Below are positions 5,425-17,315 of a DNA stretch of 64,000 nt, piece after piece. Origin of the DNA: an uncultured delta proteobacterium (GTDB taxonomy: Bacteria > Desulfobacterota > Binatia > Binatales > Binataceae); contig CAWEEQ010000004.1 of NCBI GenBank assembly GCA_963808235.1, positions 2,296,243-2,360,242 on the forward strand, in the 5' to 3' direction. How positions within the stretch are numbered: the first letter of the stretch is position 1; each line of letters starts with the position of its first letter. The position numbers were made by a program, and so were the translations under genes. The notes below the pieces were generated by a model. That model was not told where the DNA came from, did no database searches, and saw only the letters and a program-made list of their open reading frames with translations.

Positions 5425-7314
5425 TCAATCGATTCCCAGCAGCGCCGGATCGAGGTCCGGAGCGCTCAGATAGACGAGTCGCCCCTCGTCGGACGGGCGC
5501 TCCCGGAGCCATCGTGCGACGATGCTCATAGCCTCCAGCTCTCCGCGCTCGACGGGCTTCAGGTTGAATCGCTCGTAGTTGTTCGCGACGAACGCCGCGA
5601 CTTCTTGCGCCGCGCCCGCGCCGTCCAACTTCCGCGTCATCGCGAGTCGCCCAGCCAGCACCACGTGCGCCGCGCGATCGCCATTCTCACCGGTGACTAT
5701 CGCCAGGTTGTTTTCCGTGACCACCTGGCTAAGACGAGTCGCGCGATGAGCGAGCGTGGTCAGCGCTTCGAGATCGCGGCGGAACCGCCCCGCCTCCTCG
5801 AAGCGCATCGCGGCGGCCGCATGGTCGCGTGCTCTCGCCATCTCGCCGAGGAGCGGGCCAGCGCGCCCGCGCAGAAATCCGACCGCGCGCCGTACTCTCT
5901 CGCCATACGCGTCGACGCCGATGCTCACATTGCACGGCGCCGTGCAGTGACCCATCTGCCCATAGATGCACGGTGAAAAGTCTTCATGCGGTTTGAGCCT
6001 TCCCGAGCAAGTACGAAGCCCGAGGATTCGCGACAGCGCGCGAACAGAGTGATCGAGGCTCCGCCGTCCGATGAACGGCCCAAGATGCATCACGCCGCGC
6101 CGCGTGGTCATCTTGGTCGAGGTCGTCACGCGCGGAAACTCGTCCATCATGTCGAGCTTGATAAAATACGCCGGCGCCGCCGACTTGAGCTGCCGGTTGA
6201 ACGGCGGCTTGAGCTCGCGGATGAGCCGCGCTTCGTCGAGCGCCGCCTCGAGCGCCGAGCGCGTCGTCCGCGTCTCGATCTTGTACACGTGCGAGATTAG
6301 GTCGGCCGTCTTGGCGCTCACCGACGCTGAGAAGTACGACCCCACCCGCTCCCTGAGCCGTCGCGCCTTCCCGATATAGAGTAGGTCGCCGCGCTCATTG
6401 CGCATCAGGTACACGCCGGGCGCGAGCGGAAGTGCCACCACCTCCTCTGGCGTGACGTGACGCTCGATTCGCCGGCCCGCGATTCCGCGATGATGGTCGT
6501 CGAGCAGCCGATCGAGCCGCGTGATTCCCATCTTCTCCGCGATGTCGATAAAAATCGAAAGTATCTCCGCCGCCATCCGCGCGTCGCCGAGTCCGCGATG
6601 CCGCCCGTCGAGCGACAGCCCGAAGTGACCCGCGAGCAAGTCGAGGCGCCGGCGCTTGAGGGACGGCATGTAGCGCCGCGACATCCGGAGCGTGCACAGA
6701 ACCGGATTGGCGAGGCCGATTCCGAAGATGCGCCGGAATTCGAAGTTGAGAAAGCCGAAGTCGAACGCTGCGTTGTGCGCGACCATCACGCGGTCGCCCA
6801 TGAAGTCGCGAAACGCGGGCAACACCTCTTCAATAGGTGGCGCCTCGCGAACCATCTCGGTGGTGATCGACGTGAGCCCCGTGATAAATCGCGGCACCAC
6901 TCCGCCCTGCGGACGCACTAGGGTCTGGAATGATTCGGTCAGCCTCCGTCCGACCATCCGGTATGCGCCGATCTCGATAATGTTGCCGGGACCAGCGCGT
7001 CCGCCGGTGGTTTCCAGGTCAACGACGGTGAACTCTGCCTCGCTCAGCGGGACGCGCAGCCGATCGCTCTGCCGCAGCCGCCACTGTGCGTTCTCGGAAT
7101 CGAAAGCGAAATTAGGATCGCCGGCCAGGATTTGCGCAACGATCCGCGCGCCCAACTCGGGATCCGAGCCCGCGCCGCTAAAGAGAAGATCGACCAATTC
7201 TCCGGCGTCGGCGCCCGCCGGCCGCGAGCACAGAAACTGGTAGAGCTTCTGCTTCGTCGAAACCCCAAAATCGCGATGATTCCCGCCCGGAACTATCCCT
7301 TCTTCCACCGCCAA
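5425..7314 (-). CDS. DnaQ-like 3'-5' exonuclease fused to a GIY-YIG (UvrC N-terminal-like) nuclease domain
   Basis: DEDD exonuclease motifs (FTVVDLETTGG...HNAAFDFGFL...H..GDA) followed by GIY-YIG (PGVYLMRNERGDLLYIGKARRLRERV). Confidence 0.75.
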   Translation of the reverse strand: MAVEEGIVPGGNHRDFGVSTKQKLYQFLCSRPAGADAGELVDLLFSGAGSDPELGARIVAQILAGDPNFAFDSENAQWRLRQSDRLRVPLSEAEFTVVDLETTGGRAGPGNIIEIGAYRMVGRRLTESFQTLVRPQGGVVPRFITGLTSITTEMVREAPPIEEVLPAFRDFMGDRVMVAHNAAFDFGFLNFEFRRIFGIGLANPVLCTLRMSRRYMPSLKRRRLDLLAGHFGLSLDGRHRGLGDARMAAEILSIFIDIAEKMGITRLDRLLDDHHRGIAGRRIERHVTPEEVVALPLAPGVYLMRNERGDLLYIGKARRLRERVGSYFSASVSAKTADLISHVYKIETRTTRSALEAALDEARLIRELKPPFNRQLKSAAPAYFIKLDMMDEFPRVTTSTKMTTRRGVMHLGPFIGRRSLDHSVRALSRILGLRTCSGRLKPHEDFSPCIYGQMGHCTAPCNVSIGVDAYGERVRRAVGFLRGRAGPLLGEMARARDHAAAAMRFEEAGRFRRDLEALTTLAHRATRLSQVVTENNLAIVTGENGDRAAHVVLAGRLAMTRKLDGAGAAQEVAAFVANNYERFNLKPVERGELEAMSIVARWLRERPSDEGRLVYLSAPDLDPALLGID

Positions 7315-7415: not shown

Positions 7416-8111
7416 ATGCGTACCGATAGCGACGAACTCGCCCGTTACGTCACGGCGGAACTTCGCCGTCTTGCCGATCCCGCGAAAGCGCCGGCGATGG
7501 CGGCCTACATGAAAACCGCGCAAGCGTTCTACGGCGTGCAGACTCCAGCTCGCGCCATCATCATGCGCGAGACTCGCGATCGATTCGTGCCGAACGCCGA
7601 TAAATCGTACCAACGCAATGTACTCGCACTATGGAAGCTGCCCCATCGCGAGGAGCAATACTGCGCGATCGCGTATGCGCGGCAGCATCCGCGATTTACC
7701 ACGCCGGCCGCACTCCCGCTCTACGAGCGCATGATCCGCGAAGGAGCGTGGTGGGACTTTGTCGATGAGATCGCGATTAACCTGGTCGGCGCCGTGTTCG
7801 GAAATTTCCGCGCGAAGACCCGCCCCATCATCCAGCGATGGATCGACGACCCCGATATGTGGATTCGGCGCACCGCCCTGCTCTCACATATGAAGCACAA
7901 AGATCAGACCGACGCGGCACTGTTATTCGATCACTGCCTCCGGCGCGCGGGTGAGAGCGAGTTTTTCATTCGCAAAGCGATTGGATGGGCGCTTCGCGAA
8001 TACAGCAAGACCGACCCGCGCGCGGTTCGCGCGTTCCTCAAGAAGAACCGCAAACGGTTGTCGCGCCTCAGCTTCGACGAAGGCTCGAAGCATCTCGCAC
8101 GCGCGAAGTGA
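7416..8111 (+). CDS. DNA alkylation repair protein (AlkD/AlkC HEAT-like repeat family)
   Basis: DPAKAPAMAAYMKTAQAFYGV...WWDFVDEIA...WIRRTAL motifs. Start set at the ATG at 7416. Confidence 0.7.
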   Translation: MRTDSDELARYVTAELRRLADPAKAPAMAAYMKTAQAFYGVQTPARAIIMRETRDRFVPNADKSYQRNVLALWKLPHREEQYCAIAYARQHPRFTTPAALPLYERMIREGAWWDFVDEIAINLVGAVFGNFRAKTRPIIQRWIDDPDMWIRRTALLSHMKHKDQTDAALLFDHCLRRAGESEFFIRKAIGWALREYSKTDPRAVRAFLKKNRKRLSRLSFDEGSKHLARAK

Positions 8112-10211: not shown

Positions 10212-10526
10212 ATGTTTGCAATCGTAAGGACAGGCGGAAAACAGTACCGCGTCGGCGTCGGCGACCAGATTACGGTCGAGCGGCTGGTCGGCGAGGTTGG
10301 CGCGGCGATATCGCTCGACGAGGTGTTGGCCGTCGGCGGCGAAGCGCCCCAGGTCGGCACTCCGGTAATCGCGGGCGCATCGGTAACGGCGAAAATTCTC
10401 CAGCAGCCGCGCGGCACGAAAGTGATCGTGTTCAAGAAGAAGCGGCGCAAGAACTACCGCCGCAAACGCGGGCATCGGCAGGAACTTACAGTGCTGAAGA
10501 TCGAGGAAATCTCCGCCGGCGCATAG
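10212..10526 (+). CDS. rplU: 50S ribosomal protein L21
   Basis: [20 protein letters not shown] is the canonical L21 N-terminus. Confidence 0.95.
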
Positions 10527-10554
10527 CCCGGCGTTCATTTTAGGGAGACTCTCC

Positions 10555-10839
10555 GTGGCGCATAAGAAAGGACAAGGTTCGACGCGCAACGGCCGCGACA
10601 GTCCGGGCCAGCGCCGCGGAATCAAGATTTACGCGGGCCAGACCGTCAAGGCCGGCAACATCATTATCCGCCAGCTCGGCACCCGGGTTCATCCGGGGCG
10701 CAACGTCGGGCTCGGGCGCGACTACACGATTTACGCGCTCATCGACGGTGTGGTTAAGTACGAACCGAAAGGCGAGAAGCGGCAGGTCAGTGTCGAGCCG
10801 CTTCCCGCAACCAGCGACACCGCAGGGGCGTCCGCATAG
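10555..10839 (+). CDS. rpmA: 50S ribosomal protein L27
   Basis: [16 protein letters not shown]...IIIRQLGT is the canonical L27 sequence. Confidence 0.95.
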
Positions 10840-10865
10840 GGACCATCATCCCGCAAGATCGAATT

Positions 10866-10901
10866 GAAGCCCTGCGGTACGCCGTGGGGCTTTTTATTTT
10901 T
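10866..10901 (+). terminator. Putative intrinsic terminator after rplU-rpmA
   Basis: GC-rich hairpin AGCCC...GGGCT followed by a TTTTTATTTTT tract. Confidence 0.4.
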
Positions 10902-10927
10902 GCCGAACCTGCTCAGGAGGAAATGCG

Positions 10928-11956
10928 ATGCGACTAGGCTTAATCACCGGTTATTCGGACGCGCGGATGGGCTTGCCGATGGACACGATTCTCGAAGCCG
11001 AAAAAGCCGGCTTCGACTCGGTCTGGACCGCCGAGGCTTACGGCTCCGACGCGATCACACCGCTCGCGTGGATCGGCGCGCTTACCAAAAAGATTCGCCT
11101 CGGCACCGGTATCATGCAGATGCCCGCGCGCACCCCGGCAGCCACTGCGATGACCGCGATGACGCTCGACGCGCTTTCCGGCGGACGCTTCATCCTCGGG
11201 ATCGGACCGTCGGGGCCGCAGGTCGTAGAAGGATGGCACGGCGTGTCGTACGGCAAACCGCTCCAGCGCACTCGCGAATATATTGAAATCGTGCGAACGA
11301 TCCTTGCGCGCGAAGTTCCGCTCGAGCATCACGGCAAGGAATTCGACATCCCGTACACCGGGCCGGGCGCCTCGGGCCTGGGCAAGCCGCTCAAGAGCAT
11401 CCTGCACGGGCGCAAGGACATGCCGATCTACACCGCATCGATCAGTCCCAAGGGAATCGCGTTGGCGGCGGAAATCGCCGACGGCGTGATCCCAGTTTGG
11501 ATGAATCCCGACCGGTGGGACATCTACGACGCGCCGGTTAAAGAAGGCTTCGCGAAAAGCGGCGGCCGCAAGAACATGGAGAATTTCGAAGTCGCGCCGT
11601 TCGTCACCTGCGTGATGGGCCCGGACCTCGAGAAATGCCGGATGCCGGTGAAGGGAATGATGGCGCTTTATATCGGCGGGATGGGCGCGCGCAACAAAAA
11701 TTTCTACAACGACTACGCCAAGCGTCTCGGCTACGAAAAAGAAGCGGTCCAGATCCAGGACCTGTTTCTTGCCGGCAAAAGGGCCGAGGCGATGGCGCTG
11801 GTGCCGGACAAGCTGGTCGACGAAGTCGCGCTGGTCGGGAACCGCGAGCGCATCGCGGATCGTCTGAAGGCGTGGAAAGACTCGCCGGTCAAAACGATGT
11901 TGATCGGCACCGGCGACGTCAACACAGTCCGCGCCCTGGCGGAGATTTGTCTGTAG
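10928..11956 (+). CDS. LLM-class (luciferase-like) flavin/F420-dependent oxidoreductase
   Basis: RBS GGAGG upstream. Motifs FDSVWTAEAYGSDA...GTGIMQMPARTP...GRFILGIGPSGPQVVEGWHGV are typical of F420-dependent LLM oxidoreductases. Confidence 0.8.
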   Translation: MRLGLITGYSDARMGLPMDTILEAEKAGFDSVWTAEAYGSDAITPLAWIGALTKKIRLGTGIMQMPARTPAATAMTAMTLDALSGGRFILGIGPSGPQVVEGWHGVSYGKPLQRTREYIEIVRTILAREVPLEHHGKEFDIPYTGPGASGLGKPLKSILHGRKDMPIYTASISPKGIALAAEIADGVIPVWMNPDRWDIYDAPVKEGFAKSGGRKNMENFEVAPFVTCVMGPDLEKCRMPVKGMMALYIGGMGARNKNFYNDYAKRLGYEKEAVQIQDLFLAGKRAEAMALVPDKLVDEVALVGNRERIADRLKAWKDSPVKTMLIGTGDVNTVRALAEICL

Positions 11957-12026
11957 GCGTCTGCTGGCACTGACGCGCCGGCATCGCGGTTGGCTTCGCA
12001 GGTTGACGCCTGTCGCGCGACAGGCG

Positions 12027-12326
12027 ATGATTGTGCTGAATGGGTTAATCCGTTCGATTCGGCACAGAGGGTTGAGGCGGCTGTACGAGAGCGGAGACGG
12101 TCGGGATCTGCCGGCGGCCCAGGTGGAGAAAATCTCGGACATTTTGCTGGCGATCGACGAAGCGGCGCACGCGAAAGAAGTCGGATTGTTCCCAGGCTGG
12201 CGGCTGCATCCGTTGAAAGGGAACCTGAAGGGTTTTTGGAGCGTCACTGTGAGCGGAAACTGGCGAGTAATCTTCCGGTTTGAGGAGGGTGACGCCTTCG
12301 ACCTTGATTTTGTTGACTATCATTGA
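12027..12326 (+). CDS. higB: HigB-family (RelE/ParE superfamily) toxin
   Basis: IRSIRHRGLRRLYESG...LPGWRLHPLKGNLKGFWSVTVSGNWRVIFRFEEGDAFDLDFVDYH matches HigB killer proteins. Confidence 0.75.
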   Translation: MIVLNGLIRSIRHRGLRRLYESGDGRDLPAAQVEKISDILLAIDEAAHAKEVGLFPGWRLHPLKGNLKGFWSVTVSGNWRVIFRFEEGDAFDLDFVDYH

Positions 12327-12343
12327 AGGAGTCATTGGAAATT

Positions 12344-12727
12344 ATGGCGATGAAGAGTCCACCGCACGTCGGCGGTTTAATCCGACGTCAGGTGATCGAT
12401 CCTCTCGGATTGTCAGTAACCGAAGCCGCGAAGGTCCTCGGGGTCGGGCGGCAGGCGCTTTCGAGCCTGCTGAACGGGAAGACGGCTCTTACCACCAAGA
12501 TGGGCTTGCGGGTCGAGAAAGCGTTTGGGCCGAAGATGGAGCACTTGATGCGAATGCAGCTTGCTTTCGATTTGGCTCAGGCACGTAAAGGGGAGCGCGG
12601 AGTGCGCGTAGAGCGCTACGTTGCGAAAAGAGACGCGAATCATCCGGGACGGCGCCGCAAAAAAGGTGCGCGGCGAATGGAGAGGCCGACCCGGAGTGAC
12701 CGGGCGGCGCGACGGCTGATACTATGA
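12344..12727 (+). CDS. higA: HigA-family HTH (XRE) antitoxin with basic C-terminal tail
   Basis: RBS AAGGAG lies 10 nt before the ATG. HPGEIL-like N-terminus (HVGGLIRRQVIDPLGLSVTEAAKVLGVGRQALSSLLNGK) and an Arg/Lys-rich tail that overlaps the obg start. Confidence 0.7.
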   Translation: MAMKSPPHVGGLIRRQVIDPLGLSVTEAAKVLGVGRQALSSLLNGKTALTTKMGLRVEKAFGPKMEHLMRMQLAFDLAQARKGERGVRVERYVAKRDANHPGRRRKKGARRMERPTRSDRAARRLIL

Positions 12728-12740
12728 CGGTTGCGCCGCC

Positions 12741-13754
12741 ATGCGATTTATTGATGAAGCCAGGGTGTTTGTGCACGCCGGAAAGGGCGGCGACGGTGCG
12801 ATTGCGTTTCTGCGCGAAAAATTTAGGCCCTTCGGCGGGCCTGCCGGCGGCAACGGCGGGCGCGGCGGCAGCGTTGTCTTCCAGGTAGACGAAGGGCTTT
12901 CGACGCTGCTCGATTTCAAGTACCAGCCGCGGTTAATCGCGAAGGACGGCGAGTCGGGTCGCGGCAAGGAACAGTACGGACACGGCGCCGACGACATCTT
13001 GGTGCGGGTGCCTCCCGGCACGATCGTCTTCGATGAGGAAACCGGCGACACGCTGGCCGACCTCGTGATGCCGGGCGACAAAGCGATCATCGCGCAGGGT
13101 GGCGAGGGCGGCCGCGGCAACATGCATTTCGCCTCGTCGACGCGGCGCTCACCGAAAATTGCGACGCCGGGCACAGCCGGCGAACAGCGATGGATCCGGA
13201 TGGAACTCCGGCTGGTCGCTGAGGCCGGCCTCGTGGGACTTCCGAACGCGGGCAAATCGACGCTGCTCACCGCGCTCAGCGCGGCGCGGCCGAAGATTGC
13301 GTCGTACCCGTTCACGACGCTCGCGCCGAATATCGGCCGGGTGTCGATCTCCGACGCTGAAAGCTTCACCCTCGCCGATATTCCGGGGCTGATCGAAGGG
13401 GCGCATCGCGGGCTCGGACTCGGGATCCGTTTTCTGCGTCATCTCGCGCGCACGCGGCTTATCGTTTACGTGCTCGACGTGGCCGAGAATCCCGACGCGG
13501 CGTTCGACACGGTGCGCGGTGAAATCGCGGCGTTCGATCCGGCGCTCGCGGATCGGCCGGCGCTGATTGCGCTCAACAAGATCGATCTCGTGAGCTCTGA
13601 CGAGGCGGACAAAACTGCGCGCAAACTCCGCAAACGTACCCGGCTCGAAGTGTTCCCGATTTCCGCCGACCGCGCAGAAGGTCTGGCGCCGCTGGTCGAC
13701 GCGATCGCGCGGACGCTGCATCAGATGGATCAACCGGCGGCATGTCCCAGCTGA
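12741..13754 (+). CDS. obgE: GTPase ObgE/CgtA
   Basis: MRFIDEARVFVHAGKGGDGAIAFLREKFRPFGGPAGGNGGRGG plus G-domain motifs GLPNAGKST and DIPGLIEGA. Confidence 0.95.
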   Translation: MRFIDEARVFVHAGKGGDGAIAFLREKFRPFGGPAGGNGGRGGSVVFQVDEGLSTLLDFKYQPRLIAKDGESGRGKEQYGHGADDILVRVPPGTIVFDEETGDTLADLVMPGDKAIIAQGGEGGRGNMHFASSTRRSPKIATPGTAGEQRWIRMELRLVAEAGLVGLPNAGKSTLLTALSAARPKIASYPFTTLAPNIGRVSISDAESFTLADIPGLIEGAHRGLGLGIRFLRHLARTRLIVYVLDVAENPDAAFDTVRGEIAAFDPALADRPALIALNKIDLVSSDEADKTARKLRKRTRLEVFPISADRAEGLAPLVDAIARTLHQMDQPAACPS

Positions 13755-14887
13755 ACTACAAGGAATCGACGGTGGCTCGCGCGCGGCGGGTCGTGATCAA
13801 GGTCGGCAGCGCGGTGCTTTCCGAGGCCGCGGGACTGCGCTTCGACGTGATCGAGCGCCTGGCAAACCAGGTCGAAGCCGCAGTGAGCGCCGGCATGGAA
13901 ATCGTGATCGTCACCTCGGGTGCGGTCGCGGCCGGGCGCGCGCGGATGGCGAAACTCCATGGCGCGACGATCGCGGCGCGGCAGGCCGCGGCGGCGACCG
14001 GGCAAATCGAGCTGATGTCGGCGTGGGCGCGCGCATTCGGCGCGCACGATCGCGCGGTTGCACAGATTTTGCTCACCCATCAAGACTTAGCGGAACGGCG
14101 CCGGCGCGCGAACGCAACCTCGACTATCTCGGAGCTGCTCGGCGCGGGCGTGATCCCGATCGTCAATGAGAACGACACGGTTGCGGTTGAGGAAATCCGG
14201 CTCGGCGACAACGACGTGCTGTCGTCGCTGGTCGCGAGCCTGGTGCAGGCGCAGCTACTGATCCTGCTGAGCGACGTGGCCGGCGTTCTGACCGGCGACC
14301 CGCGCGAGCGCTCGGATGCGAGGCTGATTGCGGTGATTACCGATCCGGAAGCGGAGATGCGCGGCCTCGTTGCCGAGAGCGCGGGACCGCTCGGGGTCGG
14401 CGGGATGGCGACCAAGCTGAAGGCGGCGCGGCAGGCGGCGCGCGCGGGAATCGCGGTGATAATCTCGGATGGGCGCGAAGACGATGTTATCGCGATCGCG
14501 CTCGATCCGGCGCGCGAGACCGGCACGTTGATCGTGCCGGCGGGCGTGCGGCTGAAGAGCCGAAAGCATTGGATAGCGTTCGCGCTGCGCCCGGCGGGTT
14601 CGCTAGGCGTCGATCGCGGCGCGACGGAAGCGCTCTGCAATAAGGGCCGTTCGCTGCTACCCTCGGGCGTCCGCGAGGTGCGCGGTGATTTCGGCGGCGG
14701 CGACTGCGTGAGCCTGCTCGATCCCGACGGCGTCGAGTTCGGCCGCGGACTGGTAAACTATCCTGCGGCGGACGTGCTGAAGGTGGCGGGCCGGCGCTCG
14801 ACGGAGATTCCGAACCTGCTCGGCTACAAGGTCGCCGACGAGATTATCCATCGCGACAACTTCGTGCTGATGAAGGAACTCGGCTGA
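13742..14887 (+). CDS. proB: Glutamate 5-kinase
   Basis: VVIKVGSAVL kinase N-terminus and a C-terminal PUA domain. Overlaps the obg stop. Confidence 0.95.
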   Translation: MSQLNYKESTVARARRVVIKVGSAVLSEAAGLRFDVIERLANQVEAAVSAGMEIVIVTSGAVAAGRARMAKLHGATIAARQAAAATGQIELMSAWARAFGAHDRAVAQILLTHQDLAERRRRANATSTISELLGAGVIPIVNENDTVAVEEIRLGDNDVLSSLVASLVQAQLLILLSDVAGVLTGDPRERSDARLIAVITDPEAEMRGLVAESAGPLGVGGMATKLKAARQAARAGIAVIISDGREDDVIAIALDPARETGTLIVPAGVRLKSRKHWIAFALRPAGSLGVDRGATEALCNKGRSLLPSGVREVRGDFGGGDCVSLLDPDGVEFGRGLVNYPAADVLKVAGRRSTEIPNLLGYKVADEIIHRDNFVLMKELG

Positions 14888-14896
14888 AGGAAGCAG

Positions 14897-16150
14897 ATGA
14901 CGCTCGAATCGGAAGTAATTGGCGCACTGACTCGCGCACGCGCGGCAGCGCCGCGGATGGCGCTGGCGACGACCGTCGAGAAAAACTCGGCGCTAAAAAA
15001 ACTCGCGGATGCGATTCGCGCGTCCGCGGCCGACGTGATCGCCGCAAATCAAAAAGATCTGAAGCGCGCCGCCGAGGACGGACGCACCGGCGCATTCGTC
15101 GAGCGCCTGACGCTCAGTCCCGCGCGGATCGAGGCGATGGCGCACAGCGTCGAGGAAGTCGCAGCGCTGCCCGACCCGGTTGGAGGCGTGATCGAGCGAT
15201 CGACGCGTCCCAATGGTCTCGAAATCTCCAAGGTGCGGGTGCCGCTCGGCGTGATCGCGATGATCTACGAATCGCGTCCGAACGTCACCATCGACGCAGG
15301 CGCGCTCTGCTTCAAGGCAGGTAACACGGCCGTGTTGCGCGGCGGCAAGGAAGCTCTCGAGACCAACGCTTATCTCGCGAATTTGATTGGCGCGGCGCTG
15401 AAGGAAAGCGGCCTCAATCCCGACGCAGTGACGTTCATTCGCAATGTGGATCGCGAAGTAATCCAGATAATGAAGCGCCAAGGCGAATTGATCGACTTGA
15501 TAATTCCGCGCGGCGGCCAGGCGTTGAAGGACGCGCTGAAGGGCTCGTCGGTCCCGATCCTGCCGCATTTCGACGGACTCTGTCACACCTACGTCGATCG
15601 CGCGGCGGATCTGAAGATGGCGCTGGAAATTTGCGTTAATGCGAAATGTTCGCGGCCGTCGGTCTGCAATTCGATGGAAAACTTGGCTGTGCATCGCGAG
15701 GTCGCGGAGAAGTTCCTGCCCGAGCTTGGCAAGCGGATGAAAGCGGCAGGCGTCGAGCTGCGCGGCGACGATCGCACGCGGAAAATCATTCCCGACGCAC
15801 GCCCCGCGACCGACGAGGATTGGGACACCGAGTACCTGGACATGATTCTCGCTGTGAAGGTTGTCGATTCGCTCGACGACGCGATCGCGTTTATCGAGCG
15901 CCACAGCTCGCATCTTGCCGACGCGATCGTCACCAGTGATCCGGAAGCTGCGCACCGCTTTGAACGCGAGGTCGATTCGGCTACCGTTTATGTGAACGCA
16001 TCGACGCGGTTCACCGACGGCTTTGAGTTCGGCTTCGGCGCCGAAACCGGAATCTCCACCAACCGCCTGCATGCGCGAGGCCCGATGGGGTTGAACGAGT
16101 TGACTACCTACAAGTACGTCATTTCCGGGAACGGACAGATCCGCGCCTGA
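14897..16150 (+). CDS. proA: Gamma-glutamyl phosphate reductase
   Basis: 417 aa with ALDH-fold motifs. Canonical position after proB. Confidence 0.95.
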   Translation: MTLESEVIGALTRARAAAPRMALATTVEKNSALKKLADAIRASAADVIAANQKDLKRAAEDGRTGAFVERLTLSPARIEAMAHSVEEVAALPDPVGGVIERSTRPNGLEISKVRVPLGVIAMIYESRPNVTIDAGALCFKAGNTAVLRGGKEALETNAYLANLIGAALKESGLNPDAVTFIRNVDREVIQIMKRQGELIDLIIPRGGQALKDALKGSSVPILPHFDGLCHTYVDRAADLKMALEICVNAKCSRPSVCNSMENLAVHREVAEKFLPELGKRMKAAGVELRGDDRTRKIIPDARPATDEDWDTEYLDMILAVKVVDSLDDAIAFIERHSSHLADAIVTSDPEAAHRFEREVDSATVYVNASTRFTDGFEFGFGAETGISTNRLHARGPMGLNELTTYKYVISGNGQIRA

Positions 16151-16192
16151 CAGGCGCGCGGGCACAAGTTAAAAGTTAAAAAGTCAAATCGT

Positions 16193-16831
16193 ATGCGGGT
16201 AGGATTGTTCGGCGGCAGTTTCAATCCGATCCACTTCGGTCATCTTCGCGCGGCCGAGGAAGATCGAGAGGCGCTCGGCCTCGACCTCGTTTATTTCATT
16301 CCGGCCGCATCGCCGCCGCACAAAGCAGCCGGCGATCTCGCCCCGGCGGAGCATCGGCTCGCGATGGTGCGTCTGGCGACCAAGGGCAACCGCCACTTCA
16401 TGGCGTCAGACGTCGAGATTCGGCGCTCGGGAAGCTCGTACACTATCGAGACGATTCGATACTTCCTGGCGACGCTGCGGCAACCCGCGTCGCTGTACCT
16501 GTTGATGGGTGCGGATCAGTTTGCGGAGCTCGCCACTTGGAAAGATCCCGAAGAGCTGGTGCGCCTCGCGAATATCGCGGTTCACACACGATTCATACAG
16601 GGAGAATCGGGGCACCCGCGAATTTCGGTTGCCGCGCTGAAACGGTTTGGCTACACTCGGGAAGACGATCATTACGTGCATGCGAGCGGAACCACGCTTT
16701 CATTTGTCGAAACTACTTTCTTTCCAATCTCGGCCACTGAAATACGCGGCAAGCTGCAGCGGAACGAATCGATCAGGTATCTCATGCCGGCCGACGTGTT
16801 CGATTACGTTCAGCGTCACTCTCTCTATTGA
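16193..16831 (+). CDS. nadD: Nicotinate-nucleotide adenylyltransferase
   Basis: MRVGLFGGSFNPIHFGHL (HxGH) and an ISATEIR motif. Confidence 0.9.
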   Translation: MRVGLFGGSFNPIHFGHLRAAEEDREALGLDLVYFIPAASPPHKAAGDLAPAEHRLAMVRLATKGNRHFMASDVEIRRSGSSYTIETIRYFLATLRQPASLYLLMGADQFAELATWKDPEELVRLANIAVHTRFIQGESGHPRISVAALKRFGYTREDDHYVHASGTTLSFVETTFFPISATEIRGKLQRNESIRYLMPADVFDYVQRHSLY

Positions 16832-16925
16832 GGATCACTCTGCTTAGGCTTCTCTCCCTCACCGGATCGAATCGCAACCCCGCGGCAACTGCCGCGCAAT
16901 TCTCTTCGCCCATAGGTACGGCTTA

Positions 16926-17315
16926 TTGAAAGCACTCGCGAAGGCATACGCCGCAGTCGAAGCGGCACTCGAAAAAAAAGCTTACGACCTGGTGGTGCTC
17001 GAGGCCGAGCATCTTAAACCCGTCGCCGACTACTTCCTGGTGGCGACCGGGCGATCCAACGTGCAGGTGCAGGCGATCGCGCGCGGGATCGAGGAGCGGA
17101 TGGGCAAGGCCGGGCAGCGGCCGCTCTCAGTCGAGGGGCTTCATCACGCGCATTGGGTCGTGCTCGACTACGATGACGTCGTGGTGCATCTTTTCTACGA
17201 GCCGGCACGTGAGTTCTATCGGCTCGAGCGGAATTGGATCGACGCGCGTGAAGTGAAATTGCCGGAGCCGTTTCGCTCGCAGGCAGAGGGATTGAGAATC
17301 CGCGCGCTCGGCTAG
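16926..17315 (+). CDS. rsfS: Ribosome silencing factor RsfS (Iojap)
   Basis: DLVVLEAEHLKPVADYFLVATGRSNVQVQAIA...VVLDYDDVVVHLF is the RsfS pattern. Start is a TTG. Confidence 0.9.
   Translation: MKALAKAYAAVEAALEKKAYDLVVLEAEHLKPVADYFLVATGRSNVQVQAIARGIEERMGKAGQRPLSVEGLHHAHWVVLDYDDVVVHLFYEPAREFYRLERNWIDAREVKLPEPFRSQAEGLRIRALG

Follow-up and report, generated by a model that had tools for sequence, protein, structure and literature searches.

An oxidoreductase gene kept across the Binataceae and an apparently old, patchily retained higBA cassette upstream of obg in Candidatus Binatus

Background

The gene order rplU-rpmA-obgE-proB-proA-nadD-ybeB (rsfS) is a conserved bacterial neighbourhood (PMC3351149; order in its Figure 1). 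Among toxin-antitoxin systems, the one to which we compare the pair described below is HigBA of Proteus vulgaris plasmid Rts1, for which structures are available (4MCT and 4MCX, and 4YPB and 4ZSN for HigB bound to the ribosome) and in which His54, Asp90, Tyr91 and His92 of the toxin are critical for activity (PMC5027501). Both subjects meet in the DNA considered here, a stretch of 64,000 nucleotides of contig CAWEEQ010000004.1 (assembly GCA_963808235.1), called the window below, in which the gene of a luciferase-like, LLM-class F420-type oxidoreductase (LLM) and a higBA pair lie between rpmA and obg. The window is part of a Candidatus Binatus genome (Binataceae, phylum Binatota), and its Obg is up to 91% identical to those of Candidatus Binatus and other Binataceae metagenome-assembled genomes, including Candidatus Binatus soli. 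We consider it likely that the locus combines an LLM gene that is fixed in the whole family with an old, patchily kept, ordinary and possibly decaying chromosomal higBA, and that obg keeps its own promoter. What had looked like a single accessory insertion would therefore be two elements of different history, and no new mechanism is implied; higBA is an ordinary member of its family.

The window shares with the conserved bacterial cluster its genes, their order and their strand: rplU, rpmA, obg, proB, proA, nadD and rsfS are all present and co-oriented in the canonical order, and the complete order on the plus strand is rplU-rpmA-terminator-LLM-higB-higA-obg-proB-proA-nadD-rsfS (Table 1). It departs from that cluster by the LLM gene that Binataceae have between rpmA and obg, by the extra genes, variable between species, that their rpmA-LLM, LLM-obg and proB-proA spacers hold, and by an rsfS that, in the window, has no rlmH behind it. 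The ten open reading frames (ORFs) lie where the initial annotation had placed them and all their family assignments were confirmed, with scores that exceed the curated cut-offs.

The resemblance to Rts1 HigBA extends to a toxin gene that comes first, a HigB that aligns with its counterpart and keeps the catalytic residues, a HigA with an XRE-type helix-turn-helix (HTH) and a palindrome that overlaps the promoter. By contrast with the plasmid system, the window copy is chromosomal and belongs to an uncultured soil lineage; the higB start of its family is predicted to be leaderless, its HigA family has a basic C-terminal extension of about 30 amino acids (aa), lengthened further here by the loss of a stop codon, and the start of the toxin gene is disrupted.

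Results and discussion

The LLM gene between rpmA and obg

Synteny was compared by tblastn of the window's proteins against fetched loci (designated by L numbers below), and a neighbour-joining (NJ) tree was calculated from obg and proB. LLM is found between rpmA and obg in 31 of the 35 informative Binataceae loci, with 65-92% aa identity, the exceptions being L024, in which rpmA lies directly 5' of obg, and L001, L025 and L028, in which the locus is rearranged. None of the 46 loci sampled from other phyla has LLM at this place, and in about 22 of these 46 no more than 400 nt separate rpmA from obg, which makes the premise that obg normally adjoins rpmA a fair one. The position of LLM thereby appears specific to the Binataceae and, because of this distribution, the gene is best read as an ancient lineage-specific addition that is fixed in the family and not as a recent insertion. 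The initial annotation, which had called it accessory, was right in so far as no other sampled phylum has LLM there, but within the Binataceae the gene belongs to the ancestral state.

The terminator that had been proposed behind rpmA was borne out as a strong hairpin of 12 pairs followed by a T-run. A hairpin with a T-run occurs at this place in 31 of 31 Binataceae loci examined, and its stem varies in sequence while the pairing is kept, a pattern that speaks for an ancestral end marker of the rplU-rpmA unit, not tied to any insertion. LLM would have become fixed early in the Binataceae and would now be a stable part of the locus, separated by this terminator from rplU-rpmA.

The LLM protein exceeds the cut-off of TIGR03559 (335 bits) over the full length of the profile (residues 2-326 on profile positions 1-324 of 325), which places it with the Rv3520c subfamily of LLM-class F420-dependent oxidoreductases, within the TIM-barrel luciferase-like family PF00296. 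Its nearest solved structures are F420-dependent methylene-tetrahydromethanopterin reductases (Mer; 8QPL and 1Z69), from which it is nevertheless distant, with an E-value of 1.9e-25 and a score under Mer's cut-off. The only hint of F420 use was a gene of the F420H2-dependent quinone reductase family (PF04075) in another Binatus contig. The LLM start is preceded by a Shine-Dalgarno (SD) sequence, AGGAGG, 8 nt 5' of the ATG.

In L001 (Candidatus Binatus soli UBA7539), one of the rearranged loci, the obg promoter block is kept and rplU, rpmA and LLM are not within 8 kb upstream; the region upstream of obg (L001 1-8000) carries a gene for a tadA-like deaminase and genes for hydrolases, the linkage having been broken by rearrangement.

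Boundaries and promoter of the higBA cassette

The higBA cassette is a unit of about 685 bp (12003 to ~12688) that contains a promoter, higB and higA only. Alignment with copies from other genomic sites (L083, L087) delimits it: the shared sequence extends from the -35 hexamer (12003) to where higA usually stops (~12676-12690), and from there on the window aligns with relatives that have no higBA (L001, L002, L004). Inspection of the cassette ends by eye gave no convincing target-site duplication, only AGGC(G/A) at 11955 and 12579. The GC content is 0.56 over 12000-12600 versus 0.62-0.68 in the flanks.

A promoter scan identified a -35 hexamer TTGACG and a -10 hexamer GATGAT at a distance of 17 nt, with a spacer that contains a perfect 18-nt palindrome (half-sites GCCTGTCGC and GCGACAGGC, 12008-12025). 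The same layout of TTGACG, 17-nt palindromic spacer, GAT(A/G)AT, 8-9 nt and ATG recurs in about 45 loci from many genomic contexts, some of them with variant spacers, and similarity between them ends just 5' of the -35. This conservation points to a sigma-70-type promoter, the spacer of which is the likely HigA operator, and the position of the start codon at the expected transcription start suggests that the higB mRNA is leaderless; higA has an SD sequence of its own (GAAGGAG, 12325-12331) 12 nt 5' of its start. The cassette would thus have brought along its promoter and operator, a leaderless toxin start and an SD sequence for the antitoxin gene. Only two other matches to the palindrome, each with 3 mismatches, are present in the window; both are within long coding ORFs and were treated as chance, not as further HigA operators.

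Copies at the same site, their decay and their age

In none of 34 Binataceae species representatives does higBA adjoin obg. Exact-protein look-ups and a metagenome scan nevertheless recovered the order LLM-higB-higA-obg in L081, L082, L088, L089 and L093, and at least 16 of the 120 best HigA clusters have junction-specific tails that correspond to the DNA 5' of obg read in one of two frames. Other loci keep only part of the cassette at this site. In L092, higB is deleted and higA, with its usual stop, follows the LLM stop within ~20 nt; in L090, higA precedes obg and an element resembling a repetitive extragenic palindrome (REP) stands in the expected place of higB; and in L011 the cassette is reduced to ~91 nt from the 3' end of higA, right behind the LLM stop. 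This last remnant was missed by blastn-short of the LLM-obg spacer and found by Smith-Waterman alignment with shuffle controls (score 77 versus a shuffle maximum of 30); its translation gives the HigA C-terminal consensus QARKAERGIRVRRYVAKREGIVRAGPEKKAR.

Among carriers, the cassette shows 84-94% nucleotide identity, similar to the 83-92% of the flanks (LLM, obg, proB). Because of this similar divergence and of the same-site copies in other lineages, higBA appears to be old at this site, and we read its distribution as a genus-level insertion followed by stepwise losses. Comparison with relatives has thus qualified the reading of higBA as an accessory insertion: most species representatives do lack it, but it is not recent, five further loci having it at the same place and L092, L090 and L011 having it in decayed form. 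The cassette would have landed in the LLM-obg spacer, upstream of the obg promoter, in an ancestor within the genus; later lineages would have inherited it, lost it bit by bit or exchanged it for other cargo. A single chromosomal site would in this way display a decay series from intact module to loss of the toxin start, deletion of the toxin gene and an antitoxin remnant.

Some observations weigh against one old insertion. Copies at other sites (85-87% nucleotide identity) are about as similar as same-site copies, and the carriers of higBA are not monophyletic on the obg and proB NJ tree; one old gain with subsequent losses is hard to separate cleanly from spread by homologous recombination between lineages. 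Over longer times the HigBA family is mobile: 77 of the 80 metagenome loci that contain HigA relatives have them adjoining neither obg nor LLM, and the copies of L083 and L084-87 lie in other contexts, those of L084-87 as orphan higA.

These orphan genes (L084-L087, 5001-5387; Candidatus Binatus soli and relatives) are 83% identical to the window's higA and have no higB; their neighbours are a Prok-JAB gene on one side and a gene for a PhdYeFM antitoxin on the other, with the antitoxin kept and the toxin lost.

The cassette shares its landing place with other genes. The LLM-obg spacer carries a nitronate monooxygenase gene in L004, a GNAT acetyltransferase gene in L039, an IS3 transposase gene and other ORFs in L003, genes for a FecR-domain protein and a 709-aa protein in L002, an HNH endonuclease gene in L032 and a 204-aa ORF without Pfam match in L010, and the rpmA-LLM spacer also carries inserts in some species. 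The LLM-obg spacer would therefore be one that tolerates small insertions generally.

In view of these comparisons, we regard it as highly improbable that LLM and higBA arrived jointly and recently and put obg under toxin-antitoxin control, as the initial annotation had it. Both genes do lie between rpmA and obg, LLM is at this place in no other sampled phylum, the GC content drops over higBA and no terminator separates higA from obg, all of which would suit such an event; but LLM is conserved at the site across the Binataceae, higBA is a separate unit with boundaries of its own and is old at the site, obg has a conserved promoter of its own and the two genes higA and obg do not overlap (see below).

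State of higB and higA in the window

The window's HigB belongs to the HigB/RelE-like family (cut-off of PF05015, 27 bits) and aligns over the whole length with P. vulgaris HigB (4MCT, E-value 1.7e-23), with conservation of His54, Asp90, Tyr91 and His92 (P. vulgaris numbering); the motif LHPLKG and the C-terminal DYH are the same in both proteins. HigA, an XRE-HTH protein, exceeds the TIGR02607 cut-off of 47.7 bits and also matches solved HigA structures. The higB stop (12326) precedes the higA start (12344), so that the gene order is inverted, with the toxin first. By family assignment, HigB would be a ribosome-dependent mRNA endonuclease, and HigA would neutralise it and probably repress the cassette promoter through the palindrome.

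Homologous HigB proteins have 94 aa and start with M[GS]IRSIRHRGL, and their ATG corresponds to window position 12040. In the window, a 2-nt insertion, TA (12046-12047), stands right behind codon 2 of this start and gives ATG GGT TAA. It is found in the window only: it is lacking in L081, L082, L088, L089 and ~45 metagenome loci (~50 homologous loci), including the two closest, L088 and L089, whose HigA is 97% identical to that of the window. The body of higB is intact and in frame with ATG 12027, which is the only in-frame ATG of the gene, falls within the -10 hexamer and lacks an SD sequence. The window accordingly has no intact translatable toxin gene beginning at the family start and, because the insertion kills this start and ATG 12027 lies in the -10 without an SD sequence, the cassette promoter probably yields little HigB or none. 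Either the insertion is an early mutation that inactivates the toxin, or it is an error of assembly.

A fully active higBA in the window, with HigB made from ATG 12027 with 5 extra N-terminal residues or with the TA insertion being a sequencing or assembly error, is possible but in our view doubtful. The intact body of higB in frame with ATG 12027, its conserved catalytic residues and the intact higA are what an active module would show, and indel errors would be more likely if the assembly is a long-read one, to which the 3.85-Mb length of the source contig points. On the other hand, this ATG is inside a conserved -10 hexamer, upstream of the expected transcription start and without an SD sequence, the insertion and the use of that start are both absent from the ~50 homologous loci, and loss of the toxin first is seen both at the same site (L092, L090) and elsewhere (L084-87). 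Against an inactive toxin must be held that the insertion could be an assembly error and that HigB might be translated from ATG 12027 on transcripts reading through from LLM.

The 3' end of higA has also changed. Copies at other sites end in STA before the stop codon (114 aa), while in the clade adjoining obg this usual stop has been mutated away and small indels decide whether the ORF ends at 12717 or at 12725, the junction copies ending in either of two frames within GGCTGATACTATGA. In the window, the family-conserved part of higA reaches ~12675 and the final ~17 codons come from reading on into the obg promoter. The overlap that had been claimed between the HigA tail and the start of obg was not found: the higA stop (TGA, 12725-12727) and the obg ATG (12741) are separated by 13 nt, and an in-frame TGA (12717-12719) excludes any earlier obg start. 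What the tail does overlap is the obg promoter. We propose, preferring decay to an active module, that this genome represents an early stage of it, in which the higA stop has been lost and the higB start disabled, with the antitoxin kept.

The predicted obg promoter and possible coupling to higBA

In 21 of 36 Binataceae loci, a hexamer with at least 5 of the 6 TATAAT positions, usually as TGCTATAAT, ends 9-16 nt 5' of the obg ATG, whereas shuffled sequences gave a mean count of 0.38 and a maximum of 3, and control positions gave 0-1. In addition, obg has no SD sequence. The conserved pattern indicates an extended -10 promoter and a very short 5' untranslated region. In the window, the corresponding promoter consists of a -35-like GTGACC (12696-12701), an 18-nt spacer and a TG-extended -10 TACTAT (12720-12725, overlapping TATGAC), the extended element being TGATACTAT(GAC) at 12717-12728 and the -10 lying 12-15 nt 5' of the obg ATG. 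This region is downstream of the cassette boundary and aligns with L001, L002 and L004, which have no higBA; the cassette was therefore inserted upstream of an intact obg promoter and did not replace it. Most likely obg is transcribed from this promoter as a near-leaderless mRNA, and read-through from higBA into obg would be possible, with no sign of importance. The higB and obg promoters together provide sequence-level evidence, from an uncultured phylum, of promoters placed for leaderless or near-leaderless mRNAs.

Some observations weaken this picture of an independent obg. The -10 of the window (TACTAT or TATGAC, 4 of 6 positions) is weaker than the family's TATAAT, the window scan found no terminator between higA and obg, co-transcription of higBA and obg is possible, and promoters, start sites and leaderless status are deduced from conservation. 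Of the statement that obg is directly downstream of a toxin-antitoxin module, the physical part stands, higBA preceding obg with no terminator between them, and its regulatory implication is tempered by the conserved promoter that obg retains.

Two further candidates for elements at this junction were rejected. An insulating hairpin between higA and obg was not supported, the fold of 12600-12760 not being significantly beyond that of shuffles (z = -1.8) and having no U-run, and a HigA operator at the obg promoter was discarded as GCGCGAC..GGC is all that its GC-rich spacer has in common with the operator, too little for a site.

A coupling in which HigA degradation under stress derepresses the higBA promoter, with read-through into obg-proB-proA-nadD-rsfS that would explain retention of the cassette at this site, appears unlikely to us. 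It could draw on the lack of a terminator-like site between higA and obg, on a junction kept in at least 6 independent genomes or contigs, on a higA stop just 13 nt 5' of the obg ATG, which makes termination-reinitiation conceivable, and on the link described in Escherichia coli between Obg levels and toxin-mediated persistence via the type I toxin HokB (PMC5349102). However, most Binatus species are without the cassette, with loss complete or under way in several species, the unrelated cargo found elsewhere in the same spacer indicates that the site is permissive and not that coupling has been selected, and the two frames of the higA tail among carriers mean that the position of termination is not conserved. 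Moreover obg, without an SD sequence, appears built for a near-leaderless start, which may be poorly used as an internal AUG inside a longer transcript, and on read-through RNA the bases 5' of this AUG can pair with 12704-12714 (the whole fold, at z = -1.8, not being significant). Nothing in the comparative data suggests a selected coupling between higBA and obg.

It is more speculative still, and we hold it to be very unlikely, that the LLM-obg spacer is a recurrent landing site for small self-contained cassettes at which the HigA-repressed leaderless higBA promoter confers stress-inducible read-through on obg-proBA-nadD-rsfS. Such an arrangement would wire a toxin-antitoxin or antitoxin-only module to a growth-control GTPase and a ribosome silencing factor, and would explain why higA is kept beside obg after the loss of higB (window, L092, L090).

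The mode of obg expression itself seems to vary within the genus Binatus. In L006, L008, L014, L021 and L031 the gap between LLM and obg is 16-46 nt with no recognisable -10, and obg is presumably co-transcribed with LLM; L009 has an SD-like sequence, GGAGAGGAG, in place of the -10; and L004 has, immediately 5' of obg (7880-8000), two tandem copies of the obg promoter block, GAGGGTGACCGG…GCTGATACTAT.

Features of the locus and other inserts

The coordinates of the locus are collected in Table 1. A search of the whole window against Rfam at gathering thresholds gave no match, and hence no L21-leader or other known RNA element.

Table 1. Genes and regulatory elements from rplU to rsfS, in positions of the window, with the evidence for each assignment
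Feature	Position	Strand	Evidence
rplU (ribosomal protein L21)	10212-10526	+	PF00829, 132.7 bits
rpmA (ribosomal protein L27)	10555-10839	+	PF01016, 122.1 bits; TIGR00062
Intrinsic terminator 3' of rpmA (12-bp stem and T-run)	10866-10901	+	hairpin 10866-10893, -19.8 kcal/mol
LLM-class F420-type oxidoreductase (Rv3520c subfamily)	10928-11956	+	TIGR03559, 415.8 bits
higBA promoter and putative HigA operator	12003-12031	+	promoter scan, palindrome
higB ORF readable in the window (99 aa, ATG 12027)	12027-12326	+	PF05015, 64.7 bits
Family-typical higB start ATG, followed by GGT TAA	12040-12048	+	DNA alignments
higA (127 aa)	12344-12727	+	TIGR02607, 78.2 bits
Predicted obg promoter	12696-12728	+	conserved -10 in Binataceae loci
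obg (GTPase Obg/CgtA)	12741-13754	+	TIGR02729, 421 bits
proB (glutamate 5-kinase)	13742-14887	+	TIGR01027, 395 bits
proA (glutamate-5-semialdehyde dehydrogenase)	14897-16150	+	NF001221, 573 bits
nadD (nicotinate-nucleotide adenylyltransferase)	16193-16831	+	NF000840, 177 bits
rsfS (ribosome silencing factor)	16926-17315	+	TIGR00090, 100.7 bits

The genes obg and proB overlap by 13 nt in the window (13742-13754) and by ~10 nt in most Binataceae loci, a conservation which suggests that translation of proB is coupled to that of obg. The proB-proA spacer holds a catalase gene in L002 (10468-11949, minus strand), a 421-aa ORF without Pfam match in L010 (10286-11551, minus strand) and a 579-aa ORF in L031 (4136-5875, minus strand); because of these species-specific inserts, proB does not adjoin proA in every member of the Binataceae.

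The nitronate monooxygenase gene (PF03060) of the LLM-obg spacer in L004 (6792-7769, minus strand) has a very similar counterpart in the rpmA-LLM spacer of L011 (5585-6634, minus strand), so that in these two close relatives the genes flank LLM on opposite sides. A short palindromic element resembling REPs or miniature inverted-repeat transposable elements (MITEs), with the sequence …CCCCTCTCCCTG-TTA-GGGAGAGGATGAAGGTG(A/G)GGGTCCG…, is shared, in both orientations, by the LLM-obg spacers of several Binatus genomes (L007 ~7850-7900, L009 ~7950-7990, where it is inverted, L010 ~7020-7070 and L090 ~75-140). The same spacer contains, in L012 (2340-2500) and L017 (7800-7960), a long imperfect inverted repeat of CACAGATTT and AATCTGTG units around a GC-rich hairpin, which is a candidate MITE or terminator.

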